From: a virus
Strand: one strand, 5' to 3'
Length of the DNA: 64,000 nt
IMG/VR virus record: IMGVR_UViG_3300046820_002290
Span: 1-64,000 of that record
Shown piece by piece: positions 2,224-63,905 of the stretch (positions within the stretch are counted from its first letter, which is position 1; each line of letters starts with the position of its first letter). Under the pieces are notes generated by a model. It did not search any database, was not told the origin of the DNA, and worked only from the letters and a program-made list of their open reading frames with translations. Made by a program: the position numbers and the translations under genes.

Positions 2224-2421
2224 ATGGCTGAATTCCACGTTTTCGTTCCTGATGACTTTATCTGGGAACCCCAACCAGATATCACAACCTACGAGCTTGC
2301 ACTCTGTATTCCTCTCTTTACCGCCACCGGCCGTTTGCATCAATTCTACGACCAACTCACCCCTGAAGCACAGCGCCACTGGAGAAGGGTAAAAAGGGAT
2401 AAGCCTTTACGGGCCCTCTGA
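2224..2421 (+). CDS. hypothetical protein
   Basis: ATG immediately after the gyrA stop (MAEFHVF...); shorter than the track ORF. Confidence 0.6.
   Translation: MAEFHVFVPDDFIWEPQPDITTYELALCIPLFTATGRLHQFYDQLTPEAQRHWRRVKRDKPLRAL
2387..2394 (+). promoter_or_regulatory. GGGTAAAA box (putative late promoter)
   Basis: Exact motif, upstream of ORF 2453. Confidence 0.5.
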
Positions 2422-2432
2422 GCTACTACAAT
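2405..2432 (+). promoter_or_regulatory. sigma70-type early promoter (CTTTAC-N16-TACAAT)
   Basis: Matches the early class; 20 nt before ATG 2453. Confidence 0.5.
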
Positions 2433-2452
2433 AAGTTCGCCGTAAAAGCATC

Positions 2453-3001
2453 ATGGAAATTTTCTATCCGGTTGAACGCTTGTTCGCCAATCCCCGCATT
2501 TTCTTTGCGATTGCCAATTACCTGGGAGGTCCAGACGGCGAGACCCTTAAGCAATCTTTCTACGAACTGGTAGAATACAATTTTGGAGAATACGAGGATC
2601 CTTCAGAGATCGAGTTCACAGCTGAGGAAACTTGCTTCTCTATAGACGAAGAGACAGGAATCTTACAAATCACGTTGGACACTGGTGTAGCCTCGATCCT
2701 GCAGCCACTTGAAGGGGAAATTCGGGCACAAATTACGAACGATCATGAAATGGCAGCAACAAGTGCCATTTATGCTCGACTCGTCACCGCACTGGAAGAA
2801 GCCAACCCCGATTTTGCAGGCAATATTGCTTTATGCTCTCCACCAACCCCTGGGAATCAATACCTTCGTTCCCCGGACGGAGAGAGATTCGAAGGGTCAT
2901 TTCACCTGCTTTCCGACCCCGAACGTCAATTTGAATTCAACGTGGACATTGTTGACGTTAACCAAGACATCTTACGAGCAACCTACAAACCAATTATCTA
3001 A
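2453..3001 (+). CDS. hypothetical acidic protein
   Basis: 182-aa ORF; stop overlaps the next start. Confidence 0.75.
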   Translation: MEIFYPVERLFANPRIFFAIANYLGGPDGETLKQSFYELVEYNFGEYEDPSEIEFTAEETCFSIDEETGILQITLDTGVASILQPLEGEIRAQITNDHEMAATSAIYARLVTALEEANPDFAGNIALCSPPTPGNQYLRSPDGERFEGSFHLLSDPERQFEFNVDIVDVNQDILRATYKPII

Positions 3002-3810
3002 TGGCAGCTGACAACATACTTTTTGCAACCAACAGCATGCGGTCTTCAGTTTCATCGCTGAAGAAAAAATTATCCAACCTGAAAATCCAGGTTGAGATGT
3101 TCGACGCCGAGTTAGAAAAAATTGAAAATAAATTCGACAACATTCTCACCCAAGCCGAAATCTACAAGGCTAAGGTCGAGCGGGAAGTTGGCAGAGAAGT
3201 GAGGCGCTTAGAAAAAGAACTTTCCGAAGCTTCCTCTAAACGCACCGAAGCAGTAACTAAAACTGTAGACCCCAGCGATCTAAAAGTTGCTTCCACTCTA
3301 TCCATCTTTGAAGCATTGCTGCGCAACATGTGCGCAAATGCCGAAGACTTTAGAATCGCTTCCGAAGCCTTTCTGTTCCCCGCAGTCTATGAACGGGTAA
3401 TGGGTGGAGATGACGAAACTTATTTTCTCGAAGAAGTTCCACCCTCCGCGAGTTTAATCATAAAACGAGGAGTTGAATACATTTCGTGGCTTCGCTCGGA
3501 ATACGACACTCACTTAACAGAACCGGCAACATGGGCAGATGCCATCGACTACATTGCCGAGTGGTGGAGAAATGACGCACTTCCCTTGCTTTACGGGTGC
3601 CGTGACGAGCAATGGGACATTGACTGGCCTCTAAGCCTCTCAGAGATTTTGATCTGGAGAAACTCGCCGGGTGAAAGACCACTCCAATTCCCCAAAATTT
3701 TCGATGCCTACGAAATTTACAAATCCCACAAAGATGAAATCTACGAAAGTTCAGGACTCCGGGCTTTTGAATTGCGACTCTTCACCTTCGAGAATGGCTC
3801 TAATGCATAA
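3001..3810 (+). CDS. hypothetical protein with N-terminal coiled coil
   Basis: 269-aa ORF; heptad-like K/E/L N-terminus. Confidence 0.75.
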   Translation: MAADNILFATNSMRSSVSSLKKKLSNLKIQVEMFDAELEKIENKFDNILTQAEIYKAKVEREVGREVRRLEKELSEASSKRTEAVTKTVDPSDLKVASTLSIFEALLRNMCANAEDFRIASEAFLFPAVYERVMGGDDETYFLEEVPPSASLIIKRGVEYISWLRSEYDTHLTEPATWADAIDYIAEWWRNDALPLLYGCRDEQWDIDWPLSLSEILIWRNSPGERPLQFPKIFDAYEIYKSHKDEIYESSGLRAFELRLFTFENGSNA

Positions 3811-4066
3811 GAAACCCCTAAGTAAAACCGACCACCTGATTGCTAAGGTGGGTATAGGCATTGTAGACACAGTGGAGCGTCACTATCAGAAATACCAAGC
3901 GAAACCTAATGAAGCCAACGCTAAATCTTATTGCCTTTGGCGCTTACGACTCCATCGGCGCCTCAAAAACGACAAATTTCTTTTAGATGCAATCAACGAG
4001 GCAAGAAACTTAGGGCTCTACGACGAAGATCCAGGAAAAACTTGCTGGAATCTTTACTTCTCATAG
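3803..4066 (+). CDS. hypothetical protein
   Basis: ATG 3803 (MHKKPL...) overlaps the upstream stop. Confidence 0.6.
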   Translation: MHKKPLSKTDHLIAKVGIGIVDTVERHYQKYQAKPNEANAKSYCLWRLRLHRRLKNDKFLLDAINEARNLGLYDEDPGKTCWNLYFS

Positions 4067-4073
4067 GGTAAAA
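4066..4073 (+). promoter_or_regulatory. GGGTAAAA box
   Basis: Motif starts 31 nt before ATG 4097. Confidence 0.75.
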
Positions 4074-4096
4074 CCACCTATCATCAGAGTGGCGCA

Positions 4097-4837
4097 ATGA
4101 TTCCACGCACAGTCCTAATGGCGCAGGAAGTAGCTGCGCAGTTTACAGCTAGCCAACTGGAAGACTACGGCAATATTATCCTCAATGGCTACCTGGAAGT
4201 AGTTCCAAACACAATCAACAAAAAACGTTGGCAGTATAAAGAGACCGCAGGTGCTCCGACAAATCTCCCCAGCCTAACCCAAGTGCAACCCGCACTCAAA
4301 GGATGGACCACCAACTACCAGGAGTACTACACTCAACTCCAACCTAACGGTTATGGCGTCAATCCTGGCGACCCGACAATGTTCGAGTACGACGTTCACT
4401 CGTTCACTCCTGCAACCGGAACAATCACAACCGTTGGAGGTCTTCAAGGGGGGAGCGGTTACTTCACCGGTACACATACTGGAGTACCCGCAGTTGGTGG
4501 TCGTGGTACAGGGGCCACTCTCGATATTACTGTTGGCGTTGGCGGCGTAGTTCTAACCGCCGTTATCAACAACCCTGGCACAGGTTATGCTGAAGGTGAT
4601 GGTCTCACAGTAACTTCCATCGGCCCGGGAGCTGGCTTTGCAGTTTTCGTGACTGCTATCACCGTGGTATCACCTGCCAACCAACCCCAATGGGCGCAAC
4701 CCCCTCACCGTTACAACCAGCAGCAAGTGTCTGCCATCACTCCTCCCCAAAACATTAACAACCCTGCGGTCATCCAGTATTCATTCATGCATCCTGTGGG
4801 CGACAATCCTGTCCCCCCTCCGATCGACACCCTCTGA
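4097..4837 (+). CDS. putative virion structural protein
   Basis: GGxGTGATLDITV...NNPGTGY beta module, also present in the sheath insertion; preceded by the late box. Confidence 0.6.
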   Translation: MIPRTVLMAQEVAAQFTASQLEDYGNIILNGYLEVVPNTINKKRWQYKETAGAPTNLPSLTQVQPALKGWTTNYQEYYTQLQPNGYGVNPGDPTMFEYDVHSFTPATGTITTVGGLQGGSGYFTGTHTGVPAVGGRGTGATLDITVGVGGVVLTAVINNPGTGYAEGDGLTVTSIGPGAGFAVFVTAITVVSPANQPQWAQPPHRYNQQQVSAITPPQNINNPAVIQYSFMHPVGDNPVPPPIDTL

Positions 4838-4864
4838 TTTACCCGGGGAAAACCACCCTATAAT
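4837..4864 (+). promoter_or_regulatory. sigma70-type promoter of DNA polymerase (ATTTAC-N16-TATAAT), likely leaderless mRNA
   Basis: Perfect -10 at 4859-4864; ATG at 4871. Confidence 0.6.
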
Positions 4865-4870
4865 GTAAAC

Positions 4871-7657: not shown

Positions 7658-7842
7658 TGAAAAAGAAAAAGTCCCGCGTAGAAAATGTAGGTGTGGTGCT
7701 GTTCCAGGGTATGCACGACACTTACTACCTGACTGTTCCTTACGATAAAAAGAACAGGATTATTCCATCCTCCGTAGAATGTGCGTACAACTCACGTTAC
7801 TTCTCCCCTCAGCAAACCATTAATATGCTTCGGGCGCTCTAA
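7657..7842 (+). CDS. hypothetical protein
   Basis: TGATG coupling with the polymerase. Confidence 0.6.
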   Translation: MKKKKSRVENVGVVLFQGMHDTYYLTVPYDKKNRIIPSSVECAYNSRYFSPQQTINMLRAL

Positions 7843-8084
7843 TGGCCTTCCCCCTTCCTGAGTGCCCTGCATACCGGAAGTTGATGGTTACCTTTTGGTT
7901 GGACGATATTGACGACCGCTTAAAAGATAACCACCTGCAAGACGCAGAGAAAAGCTGGAAAATAGCTAATGAGATCTACTTGTCACTGCCCCCGGGTAAC
8001 GGGGACATGGAAATCGAAAATTGGCTTTTCCAACAGAGGGTAAAACTTGACAACTTCTCTCACACAACCAATGAGAACAATTAG
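7842..8084 (+). CDS. hypothetical protein
   Basis: TAATG coupling with the previous ORF. Confidence 0.6.
   Translation: MAFPLPECPAYRKLMVTFWLDDIDDRLKDNHLQDAEKSWKIANEIYLSLPPGNGDMEIENWLFQQRVKLDNFSHTTNENN
8038..8045 (+). promoter_or_regulatory. GGGTAAAA box
   Basis: Motif starts 33 nt before ATG 8071. Confidence 0.75.
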
Positions 8085-8400
8085 CAACGACGACACGGTC
8101 AAAGCAACACCGGCAACCAAAAAATCCGCTATGTCTAAACTCGAAACTTTTTCCACAACCCTGACCGACGGCCGTGAAATTACGATCCGTGAAATGACTG
8201 GGCGTGATTTAATCTACATGGAAAAAGACCTAACCAAGGCCGGCGATGTAGAAAAAGGCATGCGCATCATCGAGCGGCTAATTGTGGGTGATGATAAAAT
8301 CACTTACGACGAAATTCTAGATCTCGGTGTGAAAGATTTCCGAAAGCTTAGCGAACTTGTTGCCAAAGCAAACGGCACTGATGACGAAGACCCAAACTAA
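8071..8400 (+). CDS. tail assembly chaperone (Mu gp41 / lambda G-like)
   Basis: ITIREMTGRD...ITYDEILDLGVKDFRKL pattern; slippery site at the 3' end. Confidence 0.75.
   Translation: MRTISNDDTVKATPATKKSAMSKLETFSTTLTDGREITIREMTGRDLIYMEKDLTKAGDVEKGMRIIERLIVGDDKITYDEILDLGVKDFRKLSELVAKANGTDDEDPN
8391..8397 (+). other. programmed -1 ribosomal frameshift site C CCA AAC
   Basis: X XXY YYZ heptamer in frame just before TAA; the -1 frame is open into ORF 8433. Confidence 0.75.
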
Positions 8401-8432
8401 TTGTTGAGGATCGTGAGGATTTCACTTATCTT

Positions 8433-9235: not shown

Positions 9236-9237
9236 TT

Positions 9238-9615
9238 ATGACACGCAACACTTCTACTCGCACATCTAAGCCCGCGCCTGCGAAGTCTGACCTTCAGGTA
9301 ACTCCAGAAGCAGCTAAAATTGAATCTCCTGCACTAACCCCAGGAGAAAAAAACTCGGAACCCGCCAGTATGGAAGTTTCGTCCGAAGAAGTGAAACCTG
9401 AAACTCCCGCCGAAGCCGCCCCTGCGGTGAAAATTCAGACTGACGTTCGTGAGAAACTTGCGAAAAAATCCACGGAGGACAACGTTTTTGTTCCAACCAA
9501 CCCGGCCGCGTTGGAGAAGGCAGCTTCTGCAGTAGCGGAAGAAAAAGGATTTGAGCTTAACCGTGGCACCTCCATCGGTGCCCGCCTTATGGCTCGCGCC
9601 AATAAGAGCATCTGA
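9238..9615 (+). CDS. hypothetical low-complexity protein
   Basis: 125-aa ORF tightly packed in the operon. Confidence 0.65.
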   Translation: MTRNTSTRTSKPAPAKSDLQVTPEAAKIESPALTPGEKNSEPASMEVSSEEVKPETPAEAAPAVKIQTDVREKLAKKSTEDNVFVPTNPAALEKAASAVAEEKGFELNRGTSIGARLMARANKSI

Positions 9616-9995
9616 TGACAGTTTCCGTCCCCTTTCAACAACAGTTTACCTGGCGTAAACTTGGGTACCTTTACTTCACTAACTCTCTGGATTATCGGGA
9701 GGTTTTGGAGCAGAACCCACAATGGAAAGTGACGGAACTGCCTCCTGTCGGAGCTCAAATTCGTTTCGACGCCGCTGCTAACACATCTGGAACTCCTGGG
9801 GGACTCTCCCAGGGTTCTTTTGTGTTTGGCTTACCTGCGGGACAACAACAAGACTCCATTTTCCCTTACGACTCACAAGACTCTTATACGCTCGCCCTCA
9901 ATCGCTACACTTTGCAGGGTGTTATCGACAGAGAAGAAATAAACGGCATCACCTTTGACAGCACTCAAGCCATTACGGGACAGCAAAACGGGTAA
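9615..9995 (+). CDS. baseplate LysM / tail X-like protein
   Basis: TWRKLGYLYF...YREVLEQNP...PVGAQI resembles P2 gpX / LysM. Confidence 0.55.
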   Translation: MTVSVPFQQQFTWRKLGYLYFTNSLDYREVLEQNPQWKVTELPPVGAQIRFDAAANTSGTPGGLSQGSFVFGLPAGQQQDSIFPYDSQDSYTLALNRYTLQGVIDREEINGITFDSTQAITGQQNG

Positions 9996-9997
9996 AA
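9990..9997 (+). promoter_or_regulatory. GGGTAAAA box
   Basis: Supplies the stop of ORF 9615; upstream of the sheath gene. Confidence 0.75.
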
Positions 9998-10008
9998 CCG
10001 CCTTAGTA

Positions 10009-10061
10009 AGCTAGTCCTCTACGGAGACCTAAACGGAGCCCGCCACGCCGGTAGGCTAGCT
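10009..10061 (+). other. structured 5' leader of the sheath mRNA
   Basis: AGCTAG/CTAGCT closing stem, C(UACG)G hairpin, CCTA/TAGG stem. Confidence 0.45.
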
Positions 10062-10088
10062 GAAAAAGATGGCCCATCCTATAATAAC

Positions 10089-14702: not shown

Positions 14703-14710
14703 GGGTAAAA
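14703..14710 (+). promoter_or_regulatory. GGGTAAAA box
   Basis: Motif starts 39 nt before the portal ATG. Confidence 0.78.
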
Positions 14711-14741: not shown

Positions 14742-16313
14742 ATGGCGCAACGATTTAAGACAGCACCAGTCCCTTCCGGTGAAGTCGCCCGTTACACGAG
14801 TGACCCCTATAATTTATCGTCTATATACATGTTCGGCAGTTCCTCTCCCTTTACAGGGCAGGGGAACACCATTGTGCGCCCCAATGATGACCTGCTCATT
14901 CAGAAGGGCGGCAACCGAGCACTCGTTGTTTATCAGCGTCTTCTTTACGACGAGCAAGTACAGTCTTGCTTTCGTAAGCTGATGCAGGAAGTTACTTCTC
15001 GTCCTTGGTATGTTCAAGAGTATTCCGACAAACCTGGTGACCTCGCAGTTCGAGATTTTGTAGCAGAAGTTCTAGAAGAAATGCCCCTCGATGATATATA
15101 CACCGGGATGGCAGAAGCTTTAATCGCGGGTTTCTCTGTGGGGGAAATCATGTGGAAGAAGACCAAACGCGGAGTAATACCTTTTGACGTTCGTATGCGC
15201 GACCAACGTCGTTTCGTGTTCCAGGAAGAACAAGATGCAGTCAACGGCTTCACGATGCGTTGCCTTACCTTCAACCGGATGTTTGAAGGCGTGGAATTAC
15301 CGCAACGTAAATTTATTGTTTCCCGGTACTGGGTCTCCCATAACGGTGACCCTTACGGTGCTGCTCTTGGCCGGATTCTGTACCCTCTCGTCAAGTTCCG
15401 GCGTCGAGCAATCGAATCTTACGTCCTCTACGGCGACCGCTACGCGACGCCGACAGCTGTTGCAAAAGCACCGCTATCTGCAAGCACCCGAGAATTGGAT
15501 ACGCTCTATGGTCATCTTTCCAATCTCTCCCAAGAAACTGCAATGATTTTGCCTGAGGGATACGAACTTGAGTTTGTTGTTCCCTCAGGTTCTCCCGAAG
15601 TTTTCAAGAATTTAATCGAGTATATTGACAAAGAAATTTCTTTGGTTCTTTGTGGAGAAGATGAAGCAGGACAAGCTGAAGCTGGTTCCCGAGCATCTTC
15701 CCAGGTTGCCAACACGATTCGCGTAGTACGTGCGAGCGAAATTTCTGAGATGCTGTCTCAGACGTTGACGCAGACACTCGTTCGCTGGATTGTTGATCTT
15801 AACTTTGGTGTGGATGTAGCAGCACCTGTTCTTACACGCGAGTTCCGGATTGAGGAATCCCCCCTCTCAATGCCTGACGTCTCTCTTCTGATTCAATCCG
15901 GTTACACTCCCCGTAAAGAGTGGATTGAGCGTCATTTTCGAGTGGAGCTGGAACAAAAATCAGAAAACCAAAACGAGGAGCAAGGGGCCACATTCAATCC
16001 AGAAGAAGACAAAGACCTTTTTGGTAATATATTCGGAGGTTCAGGTGAACAACCTTCTCCCGAGCAGGAACAAGCAGCTCAAGGGGACCTAGAGGAAGCG
16101 GCTAACGTAATGGATGAGGAACCTGGGGCTGTACCAGAAGAAAGTCAAACTGATACTATTCCAACTGATTCCGGTCAACTTACGGAAGAACAACTATACG
16201 AGCTTCTAGGGATCGATCCTTCCTCACTCGAGCCAGAAGGGCAAGAACCTAATAAGCCCTTCGGTAATCAAATAATCACCGAAGACGAAGCGGTAGAGAT
16301 GGATAGAAAGTAG
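14742..16313 (+). CDS. portal protein, Mu gp29 / DUF935 family
   Basis: ALIAGFSVGEIMW, DPYGAALGR, YIDKEISLVLCG, GSRA; acidic C-terminal tail. Confidence 0.88.
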   Translation: MAQRFKTAPVPSGEVARYTSDPYNLSSIYMFGSSSPFTGQGNTIVRPNDDLLIQKGGNRALVVYQRLLYDEQVQSCFRKLMQEVTSRPWYVQEYSDKPGDLAVRDFVAEVLEEMPLDDIYTGMAEALIAGFSVGEIMWKKTKRGVIPFDVRMRDQRRFVFQEEQDAVNGFTMRCLTFNRMFEGVELPQRKFIVSRYWVSHNGDPYGAALGRILYPLVKFRRRAIESYVLYGDRYATPTAVAKAPLSASTRELDTLYGHLSNLSQETAMILPEGYELEFVVPSGSPEVFKNLIEYIDKEISLVLCGEDEAGQAEAGSRASSQVANTIRVVRASEISEMLSQTLTQTLVRWIVDLNFGVDVAAPVLTREFRIEESPLSMPDVSLLIQSGYTPRKEWIERHFRVELEQKSENQNEEQGATFNPEEDKDLFGNIFGGSGEQPSPEQEQAAQGDLEEAANVMDEEPGAVPEESQTDTIPTDSGQLTEEQLYELLGIDPSSLEPEGQEPNKPFGNQIITEDEAVEMDRK

Positions 16314-16320
16314 GGTAAAA
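16313..16320 (+). promoter_or_regulatory. GGGTAAAA box
   Basis: Motif starts 36 nt before GTG 16349. Confidence 0.78.
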
Positions 16321-19811: not shown

Positions 19812-19819
19812 GGGTAAAA
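19812..19819 (+). promoter_or_regulatory. GGGTAAAA box
   Basis: Upstream of the decoration/capsid operon. Confidence 0.78.
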
Positions 19820-20374: not shown

Positions 20375-20422
20375 GCAGGCTGGGCAGTTTTCGAACGTAA
20401 GCCCCAGCCCTGTGTGCACACA
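20375..20422 (+). other. stem-loop plus 12-bp palindrome before the MCP
   Basis: GCAGGCTGGG/CCCAGCCCTGT stem with inner GTT-TTCG-AAC; TGTGTGCACACA at 20411-20422. Confidence 0.5.
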
Positions 20423-21997: not shown

Positions 21998-22026
21998 GTT
22001 TACTTAAATCCCGCATCTGCTATAAT
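21998..22026 (+). promoter_or_regulatory. sigma70-type promoter of the GIY-YIG gene (GTTTAC-N17-TATAAT, extended -10)
   Basis: T4-early-like architecture. Confidence 0.7.
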
Positions 22027-22050
22027 GCCCTCAGAAATGAGGGCTTTTTT
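22027..22050 (+). terminator. intrinsic terminator of the capsid-tube operon
   Basis: GCCCTCA-GAAA-TGAGGGC-TTTTTT. Confidence 0.85.
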
Positions 22051-22569
22051 GTGATTACTTACACCGCCACCAACGTTAAAACTGGACGGTTTTACATAGG
22101 ATCCGCAAAGGATTACTGTAACCACTTGAACCGGATGGGGAACCACCACGTTGGCAAACCTTATAACGATTTCCGCAAAGAACTTCAGGCAGATCCCCAC
22201 GCATTCAAGTGGGAATACTCAGAAGATGGTTTAGACACCCGTGACTTTGAGGAAAGTCTACTCCATCTGTACGTGGGTAGTAAATGGTGTTATAACAAAT
22301 CAAAAACGAGCAAGGGTTGTGTGGGCGATCCGGAAACGACTTACCGGGGCGGTAAAATTGGGATGACGCAGAGTGAAGAAACCCGCCGCAAAATCGGCAA
22401 GGGCAATAGCAATCCCTCCGCTGAAAAGCGTAAGCGACAGAGTGAGGGTGTTAGCAAAACCAACGCCAAAAAATCCCCGTGCCCCCAATGCGGCATACTC
22501 ATGAACGTCGGCAACCTCACAAAACATCTCAAAGGTACTCGCTGTAAGGGCAAACCGCAAGTAGGGTAA
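22051..22569 (+). CDS. free-standing GIY-YIG homing endonuclease
   Basis: ITYTATNVKTGRFYIGS, NUMOD3-like SEETRRKIG, C-terminal CPQCG..H..C. Confidence 0.82.
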   Translation: MITYTATNVKTGRFYIGSAKDYCNHLNRMGNHHVGKPYNDFRKELQADPHAFKWEYSEDGLDTRDFEESLLHLYVGSKWCYNKSKTSKGCVGDPETTYRGGKIGMTQSEETRRKIGKGNSNPSAEKRKRQSEGVSKTNAKKSPCPQCGILMNVGNLTKHLKGTRCKGKPQVG

Positions 22570-22571
22570 AA
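22564..22571 (+). promoter_or_regulatory. GGGTAAAA box
   Basis: Supplies the endonuclease stop; starts 38 nt before ATG 22602. Confidence 0.78.
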
Positions 22572-26032: not shown

Positions 26033-27324
26033 GTCAGCAACTCACTCCCGTCAATGGCGGTGTAATTCCTAAACTTCAGACATCAACGACTCAGGCACGG
26101 TTAAATGTGCTGTCGCCACAGTACGTTGAGGTCAAGGGACTTCAAAGTCGCCCAACCGAGTGGGTTCCACGCGGGCGACCGATCTATCGTCGCTTACCGG
26201 CAACTGCGGAAACTTACCAGGTTGACTTTTTCAACCTCGTCAATGAGTCTAACATCACTGGTAACACCTTTGTAGGCGATGCTGTTGAGGAGGTTGGGTA
26301 CGTTTACGTGCCTTACGGCCTAAGCATCAATGGCCCCTTTTCCGCTGAGGTTGTAACTTCCGAATCAAAGAGAGACCTACTGATTAAGTCTGGAGTGATT
26401 GTTTGGAAATATGGCAAGGTGGAGGTTTTGCCCACTATCGCAAACATGGAGGTACTTGATATACTTAGCGGCAGGTACGATGTTGCCTATCAGCTTATTT
26501 ACGATGACTCTCCTACCCCCCATCTTTACGAGGTTTCGGATTTTGCTTTGACGGGTATCCCACTTAACGTCACGGCAAGCACTGACTCTGTTATTGGCTG
26601 GCGCTACCCCGCCGTTAATTCTTTTCTGAACACTTCCGACAATTTTTGGTCTAATGAAGATTCTTATTACCCCTCATATACACAACCATCTACCGCTTAT
26701 TTACAGTGGGAAGCAGAGCTTACGCAAGCCTACAAGAAGTTAGTCTTAAGGTGCCCGGCGGGGACAGCTTACTCCGGAACTGCAACACTATCTTACGTAA
26801 ACGGCTCTGTGTTGACACTTGTTGGGACTGTAAATATCTCGTCGGACAGCCAAGGACAATACTTTCAGTTTGACGTTAAAACTCCCAATCTACAGACGGG
26901 TTGGAATGTCACCTTTTCCTCCACAGCGATGGCTATTCAGTCTATAACTGTTACGGGCGCAATTACTCTGCTGGAGCCTCAGTCTGGTTTGTCCCCTCGA
27001 GCAGCATTGGTTATGTACCCGGTTGGAACATTGCCAAAAACCGTCACTAACAGCCAGGGTGAGGAGATTCCTGCGATTTACTGCAAATTGGCTGAGGTAG
27101 ACGTAACCTCCGACCATACTGTAACTCGCGTCCAGGACACGCGCAGCATCATTCACCGGGACTATACACCTGTAGCTGACTGGTTGACAGTACCGTTTGA
27201 CGAAGACCTTACCAACCTGTATGAGCAGGTTTCGGAGTATGCGCCTTTGTGGATGGCTCCCACAACGTGCATGGACCAGGAATATTCAAACCTTTCTTCG
27301 GATCAAATCATAGTCGAGGCTTGA
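26029..27324 (+). CDS. putative baseplate/structural protein
   Basis: ATGA overlap with the J gene; beta-rich composition. Confidence 0.55.
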   Translation: MSQQLTPVNGGVIPKLQTSTTQARLNVLSPQYVEVKGLQSRPTEWVPRGRPIYRRLPATAETYQVDFFNLVNESNITGNTFVGDAVEEVGYVYVPYGLSINGPFSAEVVTSESKRDLLIKSGVIVWKYGKVEVLPTIANMEVLDILSGRYDVAYQLIYDDSPTPHLYEVSDFALTGIPLNVTASTDSVIGWRYPAVNSFLNTSDNFWSNEDSYYPSYTQPSTAYLQWEAELTQAYKKLVLRCPAGTAYSGTATLSYVNGSVLTLVGTVNISSDSQGQYFQFDVKTPNLQTGWNVTFSSTAMAIQSITVTGAITLLEPQSGLSPRAALVMYPVGTLPKTVTNSQGEEIPAIYCKLAEVDVTSDHTVTRVQDTRSIIHRDYTPVADWLTVPFDEDLTNLYEQVSEYAPLWMAPTTCMDQEYSNLSSDQIIVEA

Positions 27325-30224: not shown

Positions 30225-30232
30225 GGGTAAAA
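30225..30232 (+). promoter_or_regulatory. GGGTAAAA box
   Basis: Motif starts 30 nt before ATG 30255. Confidence 0.78.
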
Positions 30233-32428: not shown

Positions 32429-32436
32429 GGGTAAAA
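32429..32436 (+). promoter_or_regulatory. GGGTAAAA box
   Basis: Motif starts 33 nt before GTG 32462. Confidence 0.78.
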
Positions 32437-33580: not shown

Positions 33581-34207
33581 ATGTTTCACACAGTATATTT
33601 ATCTTTTGAGGACGGTAAAGTAGGGCGCGATTACATCGGTAAGCACAGCAGTGAGGACCCGTACGATGATTACCTGGGGTCTTATAGAGACAAGTCCTTT
33701 GATCCGTCAGGGAAGATTATACTAGAATACGCCAAGACGGAGGAGGGTGCAGTAGAAGCGGAGGTCCGTTGGCAACAAGTTTTTAGAGTGGCGGAAGACC
33801 CTCAGTTTGCGAATCAATCTTATCAAACTAATAAGAAGTTCGTGTTAGACACTCGGGGAGAAAAACATCCACTATTCGGTGCAAAGAGACCTGACACACG
33901 GGAGCGGAACCTTCGGGATAACCCTTCAAAAAAGCCCGAGGCAGCAGCAAAAATCGCCGAAGCTGCCCGCAGGAGGAAGGGCAAGGATTCAGAGGAAACT
34001 CGACGAAAGAAAGGGAAAAGTATAGCTAACCGGGTGAGCGAAAATCCAAACTACCAGTCAGAGTGCGGGTCTATAGCGGCTTCTTTGAGATTTTACGATC
34101 CTGATCACCCTGAGTTAGGTGCTCAGAATGCGGGTAACTTGGTGCAGATGCAGAAACGCAGGGGATATCCACACGGCCCAGAAAACAGGAAGGCGGTAAC
34201 CGGGTAA
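33581..34207 (+). CDS. free-standing GIY-YIG (Seg-like) homing endonuclease
   Basis: HTVY...DYIGKHS..DDYLGS, EAEVRW; SEETRRKK. Confidence 0.8.
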   Translation: MFHTVYLSFEDGKVGRDYIGKHSSEDPYDDYLGSYRDKSFDPSGKIILEYAKTEEGAVEAEVRWQQVFRVAEDPQFANQSYQTNKKFVLDTRGEKHPLFGAKRPDTRERNLRDNPSKKPEAAAKIAEAARRRKGKDSEETRRKKGKSIANRVSENPNYQSECGSIAASLRFYDPDHPELGAQNAGNLVQMQKRRGYPHGPENRKAVTG

Positions 34208-34209
34208 AA
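34202..34209 (+). promoter_or_regulatory. GGGTAAAA box
   Basis: Supplies the endonuclease stop; starts 33 nt before ATG 34235. Confidence 0.78.
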
Positions 34210-39427: not shown

Positions 39428-39435
39428 AGGTAAAA
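39428..39435 (+). promoter_or_regulatory. variant late box AGGTAAAA
   Basis: Intergenic; 47 nt before ATG 39475. Confidence 0.55.
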
Positions 39436-40467: not shown

Positions 40468-40494
40468 GACCCTCGCTTCGGCGGGGGTCTTTTT
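40468..40494 (+). terminator. intrinsic terminator
   Basis: GACCCTCGC-TTCG-GCGGGGGTC-TTTTT. Confidence 0.88.
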
Positions 40495-40510: not shown

Positions 40511-40518
40511 GGGTAAAA
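40511..40518 (+). promoter_or_regulatory. GGGTAAAA box
   Basis: Lies after the terminator and before the HNH gene. Confidence 0.7.
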
Positions 40519-44938: not shown

Positions 44939-44946
44939 GGGTAAAA
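44939..44946 (+). promoter_or_regulatory. GGGTAAAA box
   Basis: Motif starts 32 nt before ATG 44971. Confidence 0.78.
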
Positions 44947-46139: not shown

Positions 46140-46493
46140 ATGAACGCTAAGAAAGAAATCGAACGTCATCGTCTCCCGTGCGGGCCAATGGCGGTTTCAA
46201 TTGAAGGCGTCTGCCGTCGCCGTCTCCGTGACAGTATGGATGCGTTACTGGACAGGTTGACACAAGAGACTCACCCTGAAGGTGTAGATATAGATATTCT
46301 TGAAATGGACGAAGAGGTAGAAATTCCAGAACCGGAAGAACCGGAGGAAACCGATGAGGAAAAGAAACAACGCTTGATCCGGGAAGGAAAACTTAAAGTT
46401 GACGTTAAAAAAGAAGTGCAAAAGTACGAAGAGAAACTGTTCGGCAATTCGAAAATGCTGCAGAATGGATCGGGTAAGATTAACAAACGGTAA
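46140..46493 (+). CDS. hypothetical protein
   Basis: Tightly packed ORF. Confidence 0.65.
   Translation: MNAKKEIERHRLPCGPMAVSIEGVCRRRLRDSMDALLDRLTQETHPEGVDIDILEMDEEVEIPEPEEPEETDEEKKQRLIREGKLKVDVKKEVQKYEEKLFGNSKMLQNGSGKINKR
46472..46479 (+). promoter_or_regulatory. variant late box GGGTAAGA
   Basis: 31 nt before ATG 46503, the typical spacing. Confidence 0.55.
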
Positions 46494-46841: not shown

Positions 46842-46849
46842 GGGTAAAA
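46842..46849 (+). promoter_or_regulatory. GGGTAAAA box
   Basis: Motif starts 31 nt before ATG 46873. Confidence 0.78.
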
Positions 46850-49588: not shown

Positions 49589-49596
49589 GGGTAAAA
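49589..49596 (+). promoter_or_regulatory. GGGTAAAA box
   Basis: Motif starts 33 nt before ATG 49622. Confidence 0.78.
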
Positions 49597-50143: not shown

Positions 50144-50151
50144 GGGTAAGA
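50144..50151 (+). promoter_or_regulatory. variant late box GGGTAAGA
   Basis: Intergenic, before ORF 50197. Confidence 0.55.
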
Positions 50152-55131: not shown

Positions 55132-55134
55132 ACA

Positions 55135-55142
55135 GGGTAAAA
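55135..55142 (+). promoter_or_regulatory. GGGTAAAA box
   Basis: Upstream of ORF 55193. Confidence 0.75.
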
Positions 55143-55192
55143 GTTGCTATCAACCTTCAGGGTCTACCTGATTGTAGTGACATTTAGTCAAA

Positions 55193-55699: not shown

Positions 55700-55702
55700 G
55701 CC

Positions 55703-55710
55703 GGGTAAAA
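55703..55710 (+). promoter_or_regulatory. GGGTAAAA box
   Basis: Motif starts 39 nt before ATG 55742. Confidence 0.78.
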
Positions 55711-55741
55711 CCAATTAACAGGACCCGAGAGCGAAGAACTA

Positions 55742-58700: not shown

Positions 58701-59398
58701 TGATGCAAGCCATTTACAACGCTGTCAAGGCTTACAACGCTTCCTACGAGGTTCATCTGACTCTGATTCCGTCCCTGTCGGTTGCTGACCCTGACCTGAA
58801 GATTGCTACCGCAGTCGCCTGCCAAGCTTACGCCGACCAAATCAACGTTATGACTTACGATGATCCTAGTAATCTCAGTCAGCCTCTGTATGAACCCGGT
58901 GGAGTCACTGTTTACAACCATACTGGCGTAGCCCGCTCGGTTCAAAGTATTCAGTGGTTCATCGACGCCGGTGTCTCCCGCTCGAAGCTTGGTATGGGTA
59001 TTGCCCAGTACGGCCGCAATACCTCCAATCCTTCGGCTGCATTCAACGCTGCTAACCCAGTGCCTTACAGCCAGATTGTTGCCTCGGCAAATGCCGCTGG
59101 TCAAATCACAAACTCCTTCCCTCTTGGCCGCTACTTCGGTGCCGTCAAGATTCAAAACCCTGCCCCAACAAATCAAACCGACTACTACAGCCCCACTTAC
59201 ACAGCCCTCTGGGGCTTCGACTCGGTGGACACCATCCAAGACAAGGTCGAGTCCGCTTCGGATATGGGTCTCCGTGCCGTGTTTACCTGGCAGATCTCCA
59301 ACGACTACGCCGATCCCGCATCGCCGAATCCCCCCGGAGACGCACGAGCCAACTTCGCTCTGCTTGCCGCCGCCCGCGACGCCATCACGAATCTGTAA
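55742..59398 (+). CDS. tail fibre with collar domain and C-terminal GH18 chitinase-like glycosidase
   Basis: Collar PVGSII..CDG..FRVPDLRGMFVRG; GH18 LSIGG, GVDIDYE, INVMTYD, KLGMGIAQYGR, FTWQISND. Confidence 0.85.
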   Translation: MAGIPPFNSQDPIPNTPFYNPDANRYNLSYPTGQLVFGSYLFVDYTTGNVYISPNPPNNGTVRQVTAGAGLETSPASGITTAGSIGLKAISTLTPGSYTYPTVAVNGYGQITLAANGNPPLVTLVGTAPIYVTGTNPIRNVGILQASLAAPGAVQLTDDVFSTSTITALTALQGYSLGSQMSIIGSSLAGQYFAGAINPATGNLTFVSPDGLAAGGLTVGSPLPAASATYKKAYFTITADGTYTPPGGVATAVVKNDRVYCINNTWQIILCGQRLVPASTTVFGTTVLSTAAEVQALTEPNKSVTPAGLTIMVASETQVGFVELATDAETQAFTDNTRAITSSNLGTLNATTATRGLVLLSDSVSDPSVTSAPTANALKTYVDSSLDTATVTAKGDLIVGLGFETPGILPLGDNGSVLTVDDTKPTQGSMDWTSRDSLNSWPVGSIIWQLATTPLGGVWMECDGRLLDASITGPYYNLYELIGTTYNQPGDAAGFFRVPDLRGMFVRGWSGAGPNPVPTALDPARTFASTQSSAYKQHLHTVTDPGHIHDFDLIQHQHTSNSSTVQHLHGATSNHSHNLDGFPNAEVVGDQAGYYDGNAQWGAPSGPNSNSPTTGIIVNNSLTGITLQSKVTGITVNTVTTGLTVDNSPPTAPVPDETRPYNIALLPVIKYGNVPAGPTPPTPTPPVPTYVVNTTPTAATENTVITTTITTANVSNGTTLYWQMSGTGIVGAFFTSGSLVGSTTVAANSASFTQTLAASLPGPGPYTLSIDIYSDSARSVQVGTTSLVIAITPGVTPSTPQLGSYIDLWQYRNTDATYPFTANSGLNPVVRASNISANALSLLNKFYLLAEVQINGLDSKLYFGAPTGFPAAAQVLNAAGTDWNTNTGSANGTYVSPTNPDYTYSAWALKNTNAYMDTQSVSKANFMLSIGGYNLSNNMDLAGASVAQANAAAAQIVTLMNLCGAKGVDIDYEPVGITCNPARMATLMQAIYNAVKAYNASYEVHLTLIPSLSVADPDLKIATAVACQAYADQINVMTYDDPSNLSQPLYEPGGVTVYNHTGVARSVQSIQWFIDAGVSRSKLGMGIAQYGRNTSNPSAAFNAANPVPYSQIVASANAAGQITNSFPLGRYFGAVKIQNPAPTNQTDYYSPTYTALWGFDSVDTIQDKVESASDMGLRAVFTWQISNDYADPASPNPPGDARANFALLAAARDAITNL

Positions 59399-59401
59399 AC
59401 C

Positions 59402-59409
59402 GGGTAAAA
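59402..59409 (+). promoter_or_regulatory. GGGTAAAA box
   Basis: Motif starts 42 nt before ATG 59444. Confidence 0.78.
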
Positions 59410-59443
59410 CCCCTTAACTTGCCTCCTCAACGATATAACGAAC

Positions 59444-61462
59444 ATGGCCATCGTTCCGTTTAACCCTAATAACGAAGTCATCCCGATTCCCAATAACCCG
59501 TTTTATTGGCCCCAAGAATCGGCGTTCCAGACCCCGCAAGGTCCCCTTATCTTTGGGGCAGGCTTCTCCGTTGATTACAATACCGGTGTCGTAAGTGTTG
59601 ATCCGGCACCTCCGGCGTCCACGGGTACGGTAACTTCTGTTACCGCTGGCGCTGGCTTGATCACAAGTCCTTTCGCCGGTATTACAACAGTCGGTCAAGT
59701 TTCGCTCGCAACTGTCCCCGGCGTTGTTCCCGGAACTTACACTTATGCGGCGTTTAGTGTTGACTCTTATGGCCGCATCACATCGGCTGCAAGTGGAGTA
59801 GCTCCCGTTCAAACACTAAGTGGAATCTACCCAATCAACGTTACTGGAGCTGCGCCCTCCCTTACTGTATCAATCGCTGCCGGAACTACCGCAAACGCGG
59901 GTGCCGTTCAGCTGGTTGACAACGTAAGCACCCCGTCCAACACACTCGCCCTGACTGCCAACCAAGGGTACCTTCTTCAAAACCAAATCAACGCAATTGC
60001 TGGAACAGCCAACATCCAATTCCTGGCTGGTACTCTCAACGCTGCCACAGGTAATGTTGTTACTGCGACTGCCGAAGGTAACACCGCAGGCATCTTGGCT
60101 GGTAGTCCCCTGCCTGCCGCAAGCGGCACAAACATCGGTGCTACTCTCCTGATTACAACTGCCGCCACCTACACACCTCCTGGCGGTACTGCGGTTAGCG
60201 TAGTTCCTGGCGACCAACTCCTGAGCGACGGCACAAACTGGGTTTACTTCCAGACCGGTTTCCGTGCTCCTTACGCCACCACCACCACTGCCGGCATCGT
60301 TCGTTACGCCACTGTTGCTGAGACACAGGCACTGGCCGATAATACCATTGCCGTGACACCTTTTGGTCTGTCCGGAATGGTTGCCTCGACCACTCAGCGT
60401 GGTTTCGTTGAGTTGGCTGACGCTGCAGAGACTCAACTGCTTGCCGACACCACTCGTGCTGTCACCCCTGCAGGACTCGGTACTCTTCAGGCTACCACAA
60501 CTTCTCGCGGTATCGTTCAACTGAATGATACACTGACAAGCACTTCGACCACGCTGGCCCCAACTGCTCGTGCGCTCAAACAAGCTTTCGATGAGTCGAT
60601 TCACAATAACATTATTCAAGCTAACGGCGATCTAATCGTTGGCCAAGCTGCTGCAGACCCTCAAATCCTTCCAAAGGGTTCGAACGGTCAGGTTCTCACG
60701 GTAGACAATACCGCTTCCTTGGGTGTATCTTGGCAGACGCCAATCGCCCCTGAGTCCACTCCGGTTGGCTCGGTGTGCTGGTTCACAACTGATGATCCTG
60801 CCAAGCTCCCCGTGGGCTGGTTGGTTGCAGATGGCTCTTCTTACGGTGTTGACTCTTCCAACCCCTACTATCCGCTGTACCAAGTAATCGGTACAACTTT
60901 CACCCCTCCCGCCGATCCTCCGGGAACTTTCCGTGTCCCCGATCTTCGCGGTCAGTTCATTCGTGGTTGGAACGACGCCGGCACTCAAGGTCCTGGAAAC
61001 CTGGATCCCGGTCGTGCTTTTGGCTCCTGTCAAGCAGACGCCTATCAACAGCACTCACACTCGGTAACTGATCCTGGCCACATCCACGCGATTACTGATC
61101 CGGGCCACAACCACCTTATTACTGATCCTGGGCATACGCACACTGTTACCGATCCCGGTCATAGCCACCAGTTCAATGTCCCCAACTCCGAAGTTGTGGG
61201 CGATCAAGCTGGCTTCTACGACGGTAACAACAAGCGAGGGAACAGAGGTGCGGGCACTACAAACAGCAGTGCAAATGTTTCTATCAACAACGCAACAACA
61301 GGCGTGACAATCAACACCGCTCTCACCGGTATCACCCAAACAATCATCTGCACCACTGGACTCACAGTTAATAACTCTCCCGCCAGCGCTCCGGTTCCCA
61401 ACGAGACTCGTCCTACAAACTTCTCACTACTCCCTATCATCAAGTACCGGGATCCTGTCTGA
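59444..61462 (+). CDS. tail fibre with collar domain and HxH needle
   Basis: Paralog of ORF 55742 residues ~1-680; FRVPDLRGQFIRGW, ETRPTNFSLLPIIK. Confidence 0.85.
   Translation: MAIVPFNPNNEVIPIPNNPFYWPQESAFQTPQGPLIFGAGFSVDYNTGVVSVDPAPPASTGTVTSVTAGAGLITSPFAGITTVGQVSLATVPGVVPGTYTYAAFSVDSYGRITSAASGVAPVQTLSGIYPINVTGAAPSLTVSIAAGTTANAGAVQLVDNVSTPSNTLALTANQGYLLQNQINAIAGTANIQFLAGTLNAATGNVVTATAEGNTAGILAGSPLPAASGTNIGATLLITTAATYTPPGGTAVSVVPGDQLLSDGTNWVYFQTGFRAPYATTTTAGIVRYATVAETQALADNTIAVTPFGLSGMVASTTQRGFVELADAAETQLLADTTRAVTPAGLGTLQATTTSRGIVQLNDTLTSTSTTLAPTARALKQAFDESIHNNIIQANGDLIVGQAAADPQILPKGSNGQVLTVDNTASLGVSWQTPIAPESTPVGSVCWFTTDDPAKLPVGWLVADGSSYGVDSSNPYYPLYQVIGTTFTPPADPPGTFRVPDLRGQFIRGWNDAGTQGPGNLDPGRAFGSCQADAYQQHSHSVTDPGHIHAITDPGHNHLITDPGHTHTVTDPGHSHQFNVPNSEVVGDQAGFYDGNNKRGNRGAGTTNSSANVSINNATTGVTINTALTGITQTIICTTGLTVNNSPASAPVPNETRPTNFSLLPIIKYRDPV
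61052..61168 (+). repeat. 27-nt tandem repeats encoding HxHxxTDPG
   Basis: Five HxH motifs. Confidence 0.85.
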
Positions 61463-61483
61463 TTAGCCCGAACCCCAAACCAC

Positions 61484-61491
61484 GGGTAAAA
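61484..61491 (+). promoter_or_regulatory. GGGTAAAA box
   Basis: Motif starts 37 nt before ATG 61521. Confidence 0.78.
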
Positions 61492-61520
61492 CCAGTCAAG
61501 CTGAAGATTTGGTCGTCACT

Positions 61521-63839
61521 ATGCCCGCCTTACCCGTTGATTTCGATCCGTACAATCCGATTCCAAACGGACCGTTTTACTCCCCCCTAACCTATTACCT
61601 GCAAGGTCCGGTTGGCCCTTTGGTAGTTGGTTCGGGTCTGTCCGTCAGTCTGCAAGGTGTAATCAGTGCCACCGGTGGTGGCGGTGGTGGTGGCACAGTG
61701 ACTTCCATCACTGCCGGCCTAGGTCTGACCGGCGGAACCATCACTGGCTCGGGAACTATCAGCCTTGCTCCTAGCGGCGTGGTCGCTGGCGCTTACACCT
61801 ACCCTGCGCTTTCGGTAGACTCTTTCGGGCGTATTACGTCCATCATGAGTGGCAGCCCCGTTACCAGCATCTCTGCTAGCGTTCCCCTGCTTCTGACTGG
61901 CTCCCCCACTTCCCCAACTATTTCGATCCAGCCTGCGTCTACTTCGCAAACAGGATCCGTACAACTCAATAATACGACCACCAGCACCCTTACCAACCAA
62001 GCCCTGACCGCTGCTGCTGGTAAGAGCCTGCAAGATCAAATCAATGCCGTTGCACAAAATGCCAACGGCCTGGTTCTGGCTGGCACTCTAAACGCTGCTA
62101 CTGGCAATGTTGCCAACGCAACTACCGCTGGCGTTTCCGCTGGTTTTACCGCTGGTTCCCCTGTTCCCGCTGCTTCGCCGGCAATCAATGATTACTATGT
62201 AATCGTCACCACTGCTGCCGCTTCTTATACTCCGACTGGCGGAGCTACCATCACTGGCGTAAACGTTGGTGACTACATCCTGTGCTCCAGCGGCGCTTGG
62301 ACCATCCTGCGTGTCGGACCCATCACAGGTGCTTACGCCACAACAACCACCGCTGGTGTGGTTGAACTGGCGACCTCCGCTGAGGCCATCACCGGTACCG
62401 ATCCAAACGCAGTTCTGACTCCGTTCACTGGTACTGCTACTTACGTTGCCCGTAAGTGCTTCACCGGTCCTGGTCAGATTCTGGCAAGTAACGGTAACGC
62501 AACTTATGCCGCTCTTGGATCGGGCATTGACGGTCAAGTTTTGACCGCTGACTCTTCCGCTCCCCTCGGCGTCAAGTGGGCACCTGGTGGTGGTGGTGGT
62601 GGTGCCAGCATTAACATGAGCTTCCTGGCTCCGATCACTGGTACTACCAACCCCTACAGTGGTGGCGTCGTGGCAGTAGGTATCAATACTGCCTCCACAA
62701 CTGCTCTGGGTGCTGTCCAGCTAGCTGACACTGCCGCCACTCAAGCTGGTGTATCTCCTTCCCTTGTGGTAACTTCGCTGGGCGCAGCAAGCACTTACAT
62801 CCCTTTCTGCGACTTTACGGCAAAAGGTCAACTGATTGTCGCCTCAGGTCCCAATGCTTACGCCATGGAGCCTCCTGGTGCTGACGGTCTGGCTCTGGTG
62901 GCTTGCGCCGCTTGCGCCAATGGCGTTACTTATGCCAACCCTCTGGCTGTTGCGACTCCCTCTACTCTTGGTGCGTTCAAAGGATTCGCTGCCGGTACCG
63001 GTGGCAACCTGTCCCTTGGTGGCTCCGCTCTAGCCGGCATCGGCGCTGGTGTCGCTAACACTGCCCTCGGTGTTCAATCTGCCACCACCCTTACCACCGG
63101 TAACGGTAACACCGTAGTTGGTAATGGCGCTCTTGCTCTTGATACCACCGGTAGCTGCAACGTGGCGATGGGTGTTTGCGCCCTTTACTCCACTGTTGGC
63201 GGCGAAGGTAACACCGCTCTTGGTACCGGCGCTGGCGCCACGATGACCAGCGGTGACTTCAACGTTCTGATTGGTTTCTGCGCAGGTGACGTAGTAACTA
63301 CGGGTTGTTACAACATCGCCATCGGTGCCAACGCAATGGGCACCACGGCCACAACCGGTTGCAATAACGTTCTGGTTGGCTGCGGCGCCGGTAACAACGT
63401 CACCACCCAGAGCAATCAGATTGTCATCGGTGCGGGCAACTCCTGCACAACAGGAACCGCAAACGGCGGCGCAACATTCGCGTTCGGCGGTGGTTGCTCC
63501 ATCTATGCCGCAGCTCAAGCTGCTGGCACAGCCGTCTGGACTTCTGTGTCCGACCAAAGCCTAAAGGAAGACGTTGCTGACTTGGCGCTGGGCCTCGACT
63601 TTGTGGGTCAGCTTCAGCCACGCACCTACACCTGGAAGGCAGACGGTGGCAAGTCCGCTGGTTTCATCGCTCAGGAAGCTGCTGCTGTTGTAGATGCTCA
63701 CGGCGCCGATTATCTCGGTTTCGTTGACAAGTCTAACGAACTCTGGGGTGTTGGTCCTGCCGCTCTCATTCCAGTCCTGGTGAATGCCATCAAGGAACTG
63801 AAGGCCGAAGTAGATGAACTGAAAGCCAAACTTGGCTGA
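61521..63839 (+). CDS. tail fibre with YadA-like repeats and C-terminal S74 intramolecular chaperone
   Basis: SDQSLKED..L.GL....L.P..Y.W..GFIAQE...LVNAIKEL. Confidence 0.87.
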   Translation: MPALPVDFDPYNPIPNGPFYSPLTYYLQGPVGPLVVGSGLSVSLQGVISATGGGGGGGTVTSITAGLGLTGGTITGSGTISLAPSGVVAGAYTYPALSVDSFGRITSIMSGSPVTSISASVPLLLTGSPTSPTISIQPASTSQTGSVQLNNTTTSTLTNQALTAAAGKSLQDQINAVAQNANGLVLAGTLNAATGNVANATTAGVSAGFTAGSPVPAASPAINDYYVIVTTAAASYTPTGGATITGVNVGDYILCSSGAWTILRVGPITGAYATTTTAGVVELATSAEAITGTDPNAVLTPFTGTATYVARKCFTGPGQILASNGNATYAALGSGIDGQVLTADSSAPLGVKWAPGGGGGGASINMSFLAPITGTTNPYSGGVVAVGINTASTTALGAVQLADTAATQAGVSPSLVVTSLGAASTYIPFCDFTAKGQLIVASGPNAYAMEPPGADGLALVACAACANGVTYANPLAVATPSTLGAFKGFAAGTGGNLSLGGSALAGIGAGVANTALGVQSATTLTTGNGNTVVGNGALALDTTGSCNVAMGVCALYSTVGGEGNTALGTGAGATMTSGDFNVLIGFCAGDVVTTGCYNIAIGANAMGTTATTGCNNVLVGCGAGNNVTTQSNQIVIGAGNSCTTGTANGGATFAFGGGCSIYAAAQAAGTAVWTSVSDQSLKEDVADLALGLDFVGQLQPRTYTWKADGGKSAGFIAQEAAAVVDAHGADYLGFVDKSNELWGVGPAALIPVLVNAIKELKAEVDELKAKLG

Positions 63840-63861
63840 GTGCAAATAAAATAAGAAAGAC

Positions 63862-63885
63862 GGGGAGGGAAACCTCCCCATTTTT
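63862..63885 (+). terminator. intrinsic terminator
   Basis: GGGGAGG-GAAA-CCTCCCC-A-TTTTT. Confidence 0.8.
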
Positions 63886-63897
63886 GTAGATAGCAAC

Positions 63898-63905
63898 GGG
63901 TAAAA
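63898..63905 (+). promoter_or_regulatory. GGGTAAAA box
   Basis: Motif starts 33 nt before ATG 63931. Confidence 0.78.

Follow-up and report, generated by a model that had tools for sequence, protein, structure and literature searches.

The late promoter of bacteriophage T4, TATAAATA, is read by gp55 together with gp33 and the gp45 clamp, and the T4-like cyanophages possess a late-promoter box of the NATAAATA type. Here, we analyzed a different 8-bp element, GGGTAAAA (hereafter, the box), in a stretch of viral DNA of 64,000 nucleotides (IMG/VR record IMGVR_UViG_3300046820_002290, positions 1 to 64,000; hereafter, the window), which makes up the initial 64 kb of a viral contig (G000; 91,972 bp, estimated to be approximately 41% complete). 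The contig gave PHROG matches to topoisomerase II, DNA polymerase, a sheath-like protein, portal, prohead protease, major head and tail tube, and to baseplate wedge, head-tail adaptor, large terminase, PhoH and a series of tail-fibre genes. A megablast search with 20 kb of it against GenBank phages found no match at the nucleotide level, and relatives were identified by protein search alone. Among isolates, Synechococcus phage S-CBWM1 (Aokuangvirus, 139 kb) is the closest, with 35–66% protein identity and broad synteny, and Cyanophage S-TIM5 comes next. From its statistics, conservation and geometry, GGGTAAAA is probably the -10-type core of a single-element promoter that serves mainly the virion (late) genes of S-CBWM1-like cyanomyoviruses.

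Like the T4 late promoter, the box is a single, stringent 8-bp element of the -10 type that has no -35 region and lies ahead of virion genes. In T4, the host core polymerase is reprogrammed by a phage sigma factor and transcription starts approximately 6–7 nt behind the box. A comparable arrangement may be proposed for GGGTAAAA, which a previous, sequence-only reading of the window had already likened to the T4 system; the strand specificity, restriction to gene boundaries, conservation in the clade and promoter-like geometry described below are consistent with that likeness. The NATAAATA box of T4-like cyanophages is likewise a short box ahead of structural genes in cyanobacterial myoviruses, but the S-CBWM1-like phages belong to a separate lineage and have a different box. 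The sequence also differs from that of T4, TATAAATA having 0 copies in the window, and the sigma factors of the clade are ordinary sigma-70-family proteins comprising regions 2 and 3 or regions 2 and 4. No match to PF02916, the T4-type clamp domain, was obtained for S-CBWM1 (complete genome) or four relatives in a search that had no positive control, and the replicative polymerase has been reported to be Pol-gamma-like (PMC7156551); together, these two points suggest that clamp-coupled activation is unlikely.

The sequence-only reading had also described the box as having an unrelated sequence. With respect to known promoters, this view has to be abandoned, because the GGGTAA present in every box is identical to the -10 hexamer of promoters read by group-3 sigma factors, namely SigB (GTTTAA-N12-14-GGG(A/T)A(A/T)) and SigF (pilA1). 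The Bacillus subtilis SigB -10 consensus is GGG(A/T)A(A/T), and the three G residues and the A at the fifth position are nearly invariant among the promoters of the Streptomyces SigB homologues (PMC8346170). In Synechocystis, pilA1 is transcribed from a stringently recognized SigF promoter in which GGG occupies -15 to -13 and GGTAA lies in the -12 region; SigF promoters also require a TAGGC region at -32 and an AG-rich context, and similar promoters lie upstream of pilA genes in other cyanobacteria (PMC2532724). The phage box shares the stringency of recognition, and one sigma factor of the clade scores best against the SigB/F/G and FliA/WhiG models, if far below their cut-offs. Unlike the group-3 promoters, the box is accompanied by neither a -35 nor a -32 element, and comprises eight invariant bases followed by two pyrimidines. 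When the T of the box is placed at -12 or -11 by analogy, the predicted +1 falls at position 14–15 from the start of the box (position 0), which is the site of a conserved pyrimidine-A step. This step, and a class of start codons at 14–15 described below, would fit the start 6–8 nt downstream of the element that is expected for promoters of this class.

The window contains 20 exact copies of the 8-mer, all on the + strand and at precisely the coordinates listed in the sequence-only reading. Dinucleotide-preserving shuffles gave a mean of 2.58 copies and a maximum of 7, where the sequence-only reading had expected about one copy by chance. Over the whole contig the count is 29 on the + strand and 0 on the - strand, and the long open reading frames (ORFs), which cover approximately 96% of the sequence, are all on the + strand. 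Every 6- to 8-mer found to be enriched upstream of contig genes is a piece of the box. The three variants previously noted at 39428 (AGGTAAAA), 46472 and 50144 (both GGGTAAGA) exist as described. Taken as a class, one-mismatch variants show no enrichment (32 on the + strand vs. 44 on the - strand, only approximately 5–6 of them at gene boundaries), which indicates that recognition of the box is very stringent; a loose position weight matrix was rejected as unjustified on the same counts.

The placement of the boxes at gene boundaries, mostly 30–58 nt ahead of a start codon and mostly before virion genes, was likewise borne out. In 26 of the 29 contig boxes, the box starts -5 to +62 nt from the end of the upstream stop codon, and the other three lie inside the final ~50 nt of short upstream ORFs; in several cases, the TAA within the box doubles as the stop codon of the upstream gene. 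The distance from the start of the box to the likely start codon is 30–42 nt for 15 of the 20 window boxes and 30–58 nt for 17 of them, with a full range of 30–99 nt. The genes served by the window boxes include the sheath, portal and protease-scaffold genes, the capsid/tube operon, the baseplate operon, the head-tail adaptor gene and five fibre genes, and PhoH and several genes of unknown function are preceded by a box as well.

The anatomy of the element was analyzed in the 29 contig boxes and in 261 non-redundant boxes of the clade. Information is confined to position -1 (A or C), the 8-mer itself, positions 8–9 (pyrimidines; CC in this phage), position 10 (A), position 13 and positions 14–15. 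The pyrimidine-A step that the sequence-only reading had placed 13–14 nt after the box start is found in both samples: position 13 is C or T in 25 of the 29 contig boxes and a pyrimidine in 73% of the clade boxes, and A occupies position 14 in 17 of 29 and in 59%, respectively, and position 15 in 51% of the clade boxes. A -35 element was sought in the 29 and then in the 261 boxes, and no position from -45 to -2 rose above 0.13 bit; the conclusion that a conserved -35 is absent therefore holds. Neither GTTTAA nor TAGGC, the -35/-32 elements of group-3 sigma promoters, was found 12–17 nt upstream of the 261 boxes. In 363 distinct contexts, the spacing between the start of the box and the first ATG that begins a long ORF shows a main mode at 30–42 nt and a small, sharp class of seven cases at 14–15 nt, and 16–27 nt is nearly empty. 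This is the pattern expected if transcripts began at position 14–15, in which case an ATG at 14–15 would be leaderless and any other start codon would be preceded by a leader of sufficient length for ribosomes to load. In S-CBWM1, moreover, boxes lie 39 nt ahead of the annotated tRNA-Gly gene and 18 nt ahead of the tRNA-Thr gene, which points to a signal that acts in transcription, not in translation. Strict intrinsic terminators end 8–54 nt ahead of the contig boxes at 40511, 63898 and 74594 and of 3–4 boxes in each of three relatives, and the order terminator, box, gene is a recurrent unit in these four genomes.

The box is a phage element, as had been claimed, but it is not specific to this phage, being common to the S-CBWM1-like clade. 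A portal-gene scan of IMG/VR yielded 164 confirmed relatives, and 80 related loci obtained in this way (905 kb in total) were used for box counts. Scanning both strands of the contig and of its relatives, as the sequence-only reading had proposed as a check on mid-gene and - strand abundance, gave + and - counts of 29/0 in the contig, where the copies are restricted to boundaries, and 33/1 in S-CBWM1; in the 80 loci, all 291 copies are on the coding strand, and GGGTAAAA is the commonest of all their 8-mers. Three relatives of 112–114 kb have 31/0, 25/0 and 24/0. Orthologous genes that share the box with S-CBWM1 include portal, protease, PhoH, the gene before the baseplate operon and the homologs of gp79, gp172 and gp2. 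In an alignment of the portal-upstream region from 66 distinct relative sequences, roughly three-quarters carry the box, unchanged wherever it is present, and both the coding flank upstream of it and the leader downstream vary; in one subgroup, the upstream gene and flank are entirely different and the box is retained. In the sequences without a box, another gene abuts the portal start. In approximately 13 relatives that lack the portal box (L005, L007, L011, L016, L019, L020, L026, L027, L032, L048, L050, L053 and L059), a different upstream gene ends in a conserved CCCCGG-GA-GGTTGGGT stretch and reaches the portal start, with an AGGAG-type ribosome site. It looks like an inserted gene, possibly a homing endonuclease gene, that displaced the promoter.

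The nearest sequenced sister lineage, S-TIM5, is set apart from the clade. Its genome contains GGGTAAAA 8 times in the forward and 4 times in the reverse direction, the same as a reversed-pattern control, and hence the box is not used there. S-TIM5 (NC_019516.2; L109–L117) has an upstream 8-mer of its own, GTTTAAAG, in 36 copies, 24 of which lie 19–57 nt (mostly 30–38 nt) ahead of a start codon in gene orientation; this word resembles the SigB -35 consensus GTTTAA, and S-TIM5 encodes a sigma factor 27% identical to the SigB/F/G-like sigma of S-CBWM1. S-CBWM1 (L001–L003) also has a second repeated element, TGTGAAAGATT-N5-ACTGTCCCATGG; 8 copies of its TGTGAAAGATT half are on the + strand and 4 are on the - strand. 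The element is found, for example, at 26546–26572, 26635–26661, 65859–65885, 96364–96390, 126613–126639 and 135658–135696 of the S-CBWM1 record. A short hairpin usually precedes it, and a GGGTAAAA box often follows immediately downstream. The element is absent from the present contig and from freshwater relatives, and may be a regulator binding site specific to S-CBWM1.

The distribution of the box along these genomes is uneven. Two relatives each contain one box-free stretch of 30–33 kb (Poisson P ~1e-3); that of relative G003, which is crowded with small ORFs without a known function, corresponds to the tRNA/early part of S-CBWM1, and S-CBWM1 itself has a box-free stretch of 20.8 kb (gp41–gp72) including topoisomerase and DNA polymerase. 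Sigma-70-type matches are enriched in one 20-kb part of the G003 box-free region (26 vs. 16.1 +/- 3.8), with the best of them on the coding strand, and are near background in three 20-kb pieces of the window (19 vs. 15.9, 18 vs. 13.4 and 19 vs. 16.2). Beyond the window, the contig has a box-free nucleotide-metabolism module at 81.9–89.8 kb (with a DnaQ-like exonuclease gene and a polymerase-like gene), headed by a consensus sigma-70 site, TTGACA-N17-TAATAT, at 83783–83811.

The sequence-only reading had further expected a phage sigma factor or activator outside the window. Two sigma-70-family genes are common to S-CBWM1 and its long relatives, and a Sigma70_r2 search of the contig gave no match; the end of the contig is syntenic with S-CBWM1 at ~90 kb, and both S-CBWM1 sigma genes lie further on, at 101.6 and 109.2 kb. 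The location of these genes outside both window and contig thus agrees with that expectation; a reader among them is something that we infer from their features. The first sigma factor (200–211 aa, regions 2 and 4) is 48% identical to S-CBWM1 gp055. The second (~225 aa), encoded directly behind the ribonucleotide reductase genes, is 57% identical to S-CBWM1 gp045; the best NCBIfam model for the S-CBWM1 copy is SigB/F/G, and for a relative's copy the FliA/WhiG and SigB/F/G models are about equal. The subfamily scores of 42–53 bits are far below the curated cut-off of 234; therefore, the second sigma is not a member of those subfamilies. The sigma factors of the clade also match phrog_351 and general sigma-70 models. 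A search of PDB sequences with the relative's copy of the second sigma gave one weak sigma-factor match, chain 8x6g_H, which we take to be Staphylococcus aureus SigB, besides a spurious match to a designed repeat. The protein has 871 homologs in the protein collection, of which the best 120 are all at least 76% identical, and its family matches stop after region 3. This SigB/F/G-like sigma behind the ribonucleotide reductase genes is tentatively considered the reader of the box, an assignment for which the chances are somewhat less than even; the first sigma factor or the SigF of the host may be the reader instead.

A feasible model is that the early and nucleotide-metabolism genes, including the phage's own sigma-factor genes located outside the contig, are transcribed from host sigma-70-type promoters, and that the phage sigma then directs the host core RNA polymerase to the box. 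The GGG would represent an extended -10 (-15 to -13) and TAAAA(C) the -10 proper; transcription would start at the conserved A 14–15 nt after the box start and yield mRNAs with leaders of approximately 16–28 nt or none. The eight exact base pairs (~16 bits) would stand in for a -35 element. It is also tempting to speculate, although we consider this a minority prospect, that a phage-encoded, highly diverged group-3-like sigma reads the 8-bp extended -10 box GGGTAAAA alone, with no -35 contact, and that S-TIM5 has co-evolved GTTTAAAG with a diverged sigma of its own.

Several points weigh against this interpretation. What was observed are the motif statistics, the conservation, the geometry and the sigma genes of relatives, and it is from these that we infer promoter function, the transcription start, the timing and the sigma reader. 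The -35/-32 element normally needed by group-3 sigma promoters is absent here. Because the contig itself carries no sigma gene, the presence of one in this phage is extrapolated from relatives, and the AlphaFold model of the SigB/F/G-like sigma is of such low confidence (pLDDT 59) that the lack of region 4 cannot be shown from it. Finally, genes that do not look late also stand behind boxes, namely PhoH and the gene just before the DNA polymerase gene, and, in S-CBWM1, the tRNA genes and an NMN adenylyltransferase gene; this suggests that use of the box as a promoter may be general in the phage and not confined to late genes. The designation of the box as late, which the sequence-only reading had adopted, is consistent with the bias toward virion genes and with the box-free early-type regions of relatives, but the PhoH, pre-polymerase and tRNA cases indicate that the putative promoter is biased to virion genes, not exclusive to them.

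The reader of such a promoter could instead be a group-3 sigma of the SigF type borrowed from the host. GGGTAA is identical to -15 to -10 of the Synechocystis pilA1 promoter, and the comparable promoters of other cyanobacterial pilA genes would make a host reader plausible, but the -32 TAGGC and the AG-rich context that SigF requires (PMC2532724) are both absent in the 261 boxes. The clade, moreover, keeps two sigma genes of its own, and we regard the use of a host sigma as unlikely. Outside the promoter model, the box could be recognized in RNA by a sequence-specific endoribonuclease, analogous to T4 RegB with its GGAG target, that cuts polycistronic transcripts at gene boundaries. The strand bias, the boundary position and the fixed downstream A would all fit such a site, and to that extent they also count against a promoter. 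Several boxes, however, lie 8–54 nt behind strong terminators, where little read-through RNA would be available to cut, and the leaderless AUG class at 14–15 nt and the pyrimidine-purine step are classical signatures of initiation. Folding around the boxes gave no signal of local structure (mean z -0.25 vs. -0.27 at random control positions), Rfam models had 0 matches in the window, and cleavage would leave the late region without any other promoter-like motif, since sigma-70-like sites are near background there and the enriched k-mers are all pieces of the box. Taken together, RNA cleavage is distinctly improbable.

The weak use of Shine-Dalgarno sequences in the contig, where a GGAG, GAGG or AGGA 4-mer occurs within 20 nt of the start in only 22 of 91 predicted genes, and the fairly constant spacing of 30–42 nt between most boxes and the start codon raise the question of whether the box could be a 5′-untranslated-region element, such as a non-Shine-Dalgarno enhancer that recruits ribosomes or stabilizes mRNA, with transcription starting further upstream. 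This would hardly explain the boxes ahead of the S-CBWM1 tRNA genes, the distances of up to 53–99 nt for some genes, a small class with the start codon just 6–7 nt behind the box, or the many genes that have no box at all, and a translational role is very improbable. As for signals apart from gene expression, Chi and KOPS are strand-skewed, over-represented 8-mers, as is the box, and a polar DNA-level signal of this kind, a strand-specific nicking site or a modification target could be imagined. Such signals are scattered through coding sequence, whereas all copies here stand at boundaries, at a set distance from the start codon, and are missing from the 30-kb early regions; we give a DNA-level role almost no credence.

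The putative promoter reading, to which we return, organizes the window as follows, all features being on the + strand. The box at 2387–2394 is followed by ATG 2453 (182 aa; homolog of S-CBWM1 gp75, function unknown) and that at 4066–4073 by ATG 4097 (246 aa; weak virion-structural PHROG matches), behind which lies the DNA polymerase gene; a newly added one-mismatch variant, GGGGAAAA, at 4845–4852 stands 26 nt ahead of the polymerase ATG 4871. The gene behind the box at 8038–8045 probably starts at ATG 8071, since TTG 8047 would precede the predicted transcript start. The box at 9990–9997 overlaps the upstream stop codon and precedes a tail-sheath-like gene (ATG 10089) with an unusually long leader of 99 nt; a strong terminator-like hairpin with a T-run lies at 9794–9814, inside ORF 9615–9995 and 176 nt ahead of this box. 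The portal gene (ATG 14742) and the prohead protease/scaffold gene (GTG 16349) are preceded by boxes at 14703–14710 and 16313–16320, respectively. The unit behind 19812–19819 opens at ATG 19900 and extends into the genes for the major head (20455) and the tail tube (21536), neither of which has its own box. In the 93-nt, boxless spacer ahead of the major head gene, a GC-rich hairpin (GGCTGGGC...GCCCCAGCC) at 20378–20409 may be an mRNA processing or stability element within this unit. Between the tube gene and the next box, a sigma-70-like site (TTTACT-16-TATAAT with an upstream TG) adjoins a terminator hairpin at 22027–22044 (together 21999–22044), just ahead of a gene starting at GTG 22051.

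The TAA of the box at 22564–22571 is the stop codon of the upstream gene, and ATG 22602 and the baseplate wedge operon follow. Further boxes are located at 30225–30232 (ATG 30255), 32429–32436 (head-tail adaptor gene, GTG 32462) and 34202–34209 (ATG 34235, fibre-assembly-like, and a 1512-aa fibre gene), and the variant AGGTAAAA at 39428–39435 stands 47 nt ahead of a fibre-like gene (ATG 39475). A strong intrinsic terminator with a 9-bp stem and a T-run (40468–40489) ends 21 nt ahead of the box at 40511–40518, whose next start is ATG 40564. The box at 44939–44946 precedes PhoH and supports ATG 44971 as its start; the orthologous box in S-CBWM1 lies 46 nt ahead of PhoH. The variant GGGTAAGA at 46472–46479 is 31 nt ahead of ATG 46503, and its second copy at 50144–50151 is 53 nt ahead of a 1644-aa fibre gene (ATG 50197); between them are the boxes at 46842–46849 (ATG 46873) and 49589–49596 (ATG 49622). 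The fibre region continues with boxes at 55135–55142 (ATG 55193, minor tail/fibre-like), 55703–55710 (ATG 55742), 59402–59409 (ATG 59444) and 61484–61491 (ATG 61521), the last three heading fibre genes. Among the start codons that the sequence-only reading had chosen with the help of the box, 8071 and 44971 are thus supported and 61521 is kept, with TTG 61509 also possible. An intrinsic terminator hairpin with a T-run (63862–63879) ends 18 nt ahead of the last box (63898–63905), and the gene behind it (ATG 63931) runs off the window.

Literature searches for GGGTAAAA in connection with phages or promoters returned only primers and unrelated matches, and publications mentioning S-CBWM1 contained nothing on a promoter motif; the genome papers of S-CBWM1 and S-TIM5 were not among the sources covered, and an earlier description is possible. 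Judged from sequence, the system is probably of a familiar kind, a phage sigma-dependent single-box late promoter, in a new sequence variant. The S-CBWM1-like clade is abundant in metagenomes. A reliable promoter word would fix transcription units and start codons in its genomes, pick out late genes from the many ORFs without a known function and assign short contigs to the clade. It also points to a putative sigma/promoter pair with potential as an orthogonal switch for gene expression in cyanobacteria. If a diverged phage sigma does read the box alone, the pair would be compact, orthogonal and native to cyanobacterial RNA polymerase, and the S-CBWM1-like and S-TIM5 lineages would represent a natural series of specificity switches. 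These observations imply that a cyanomyovirus lineage outside the T4 group may have reached the T4 solution, one stringent -10 box with no -35, from an element of the SigB/SigF type.

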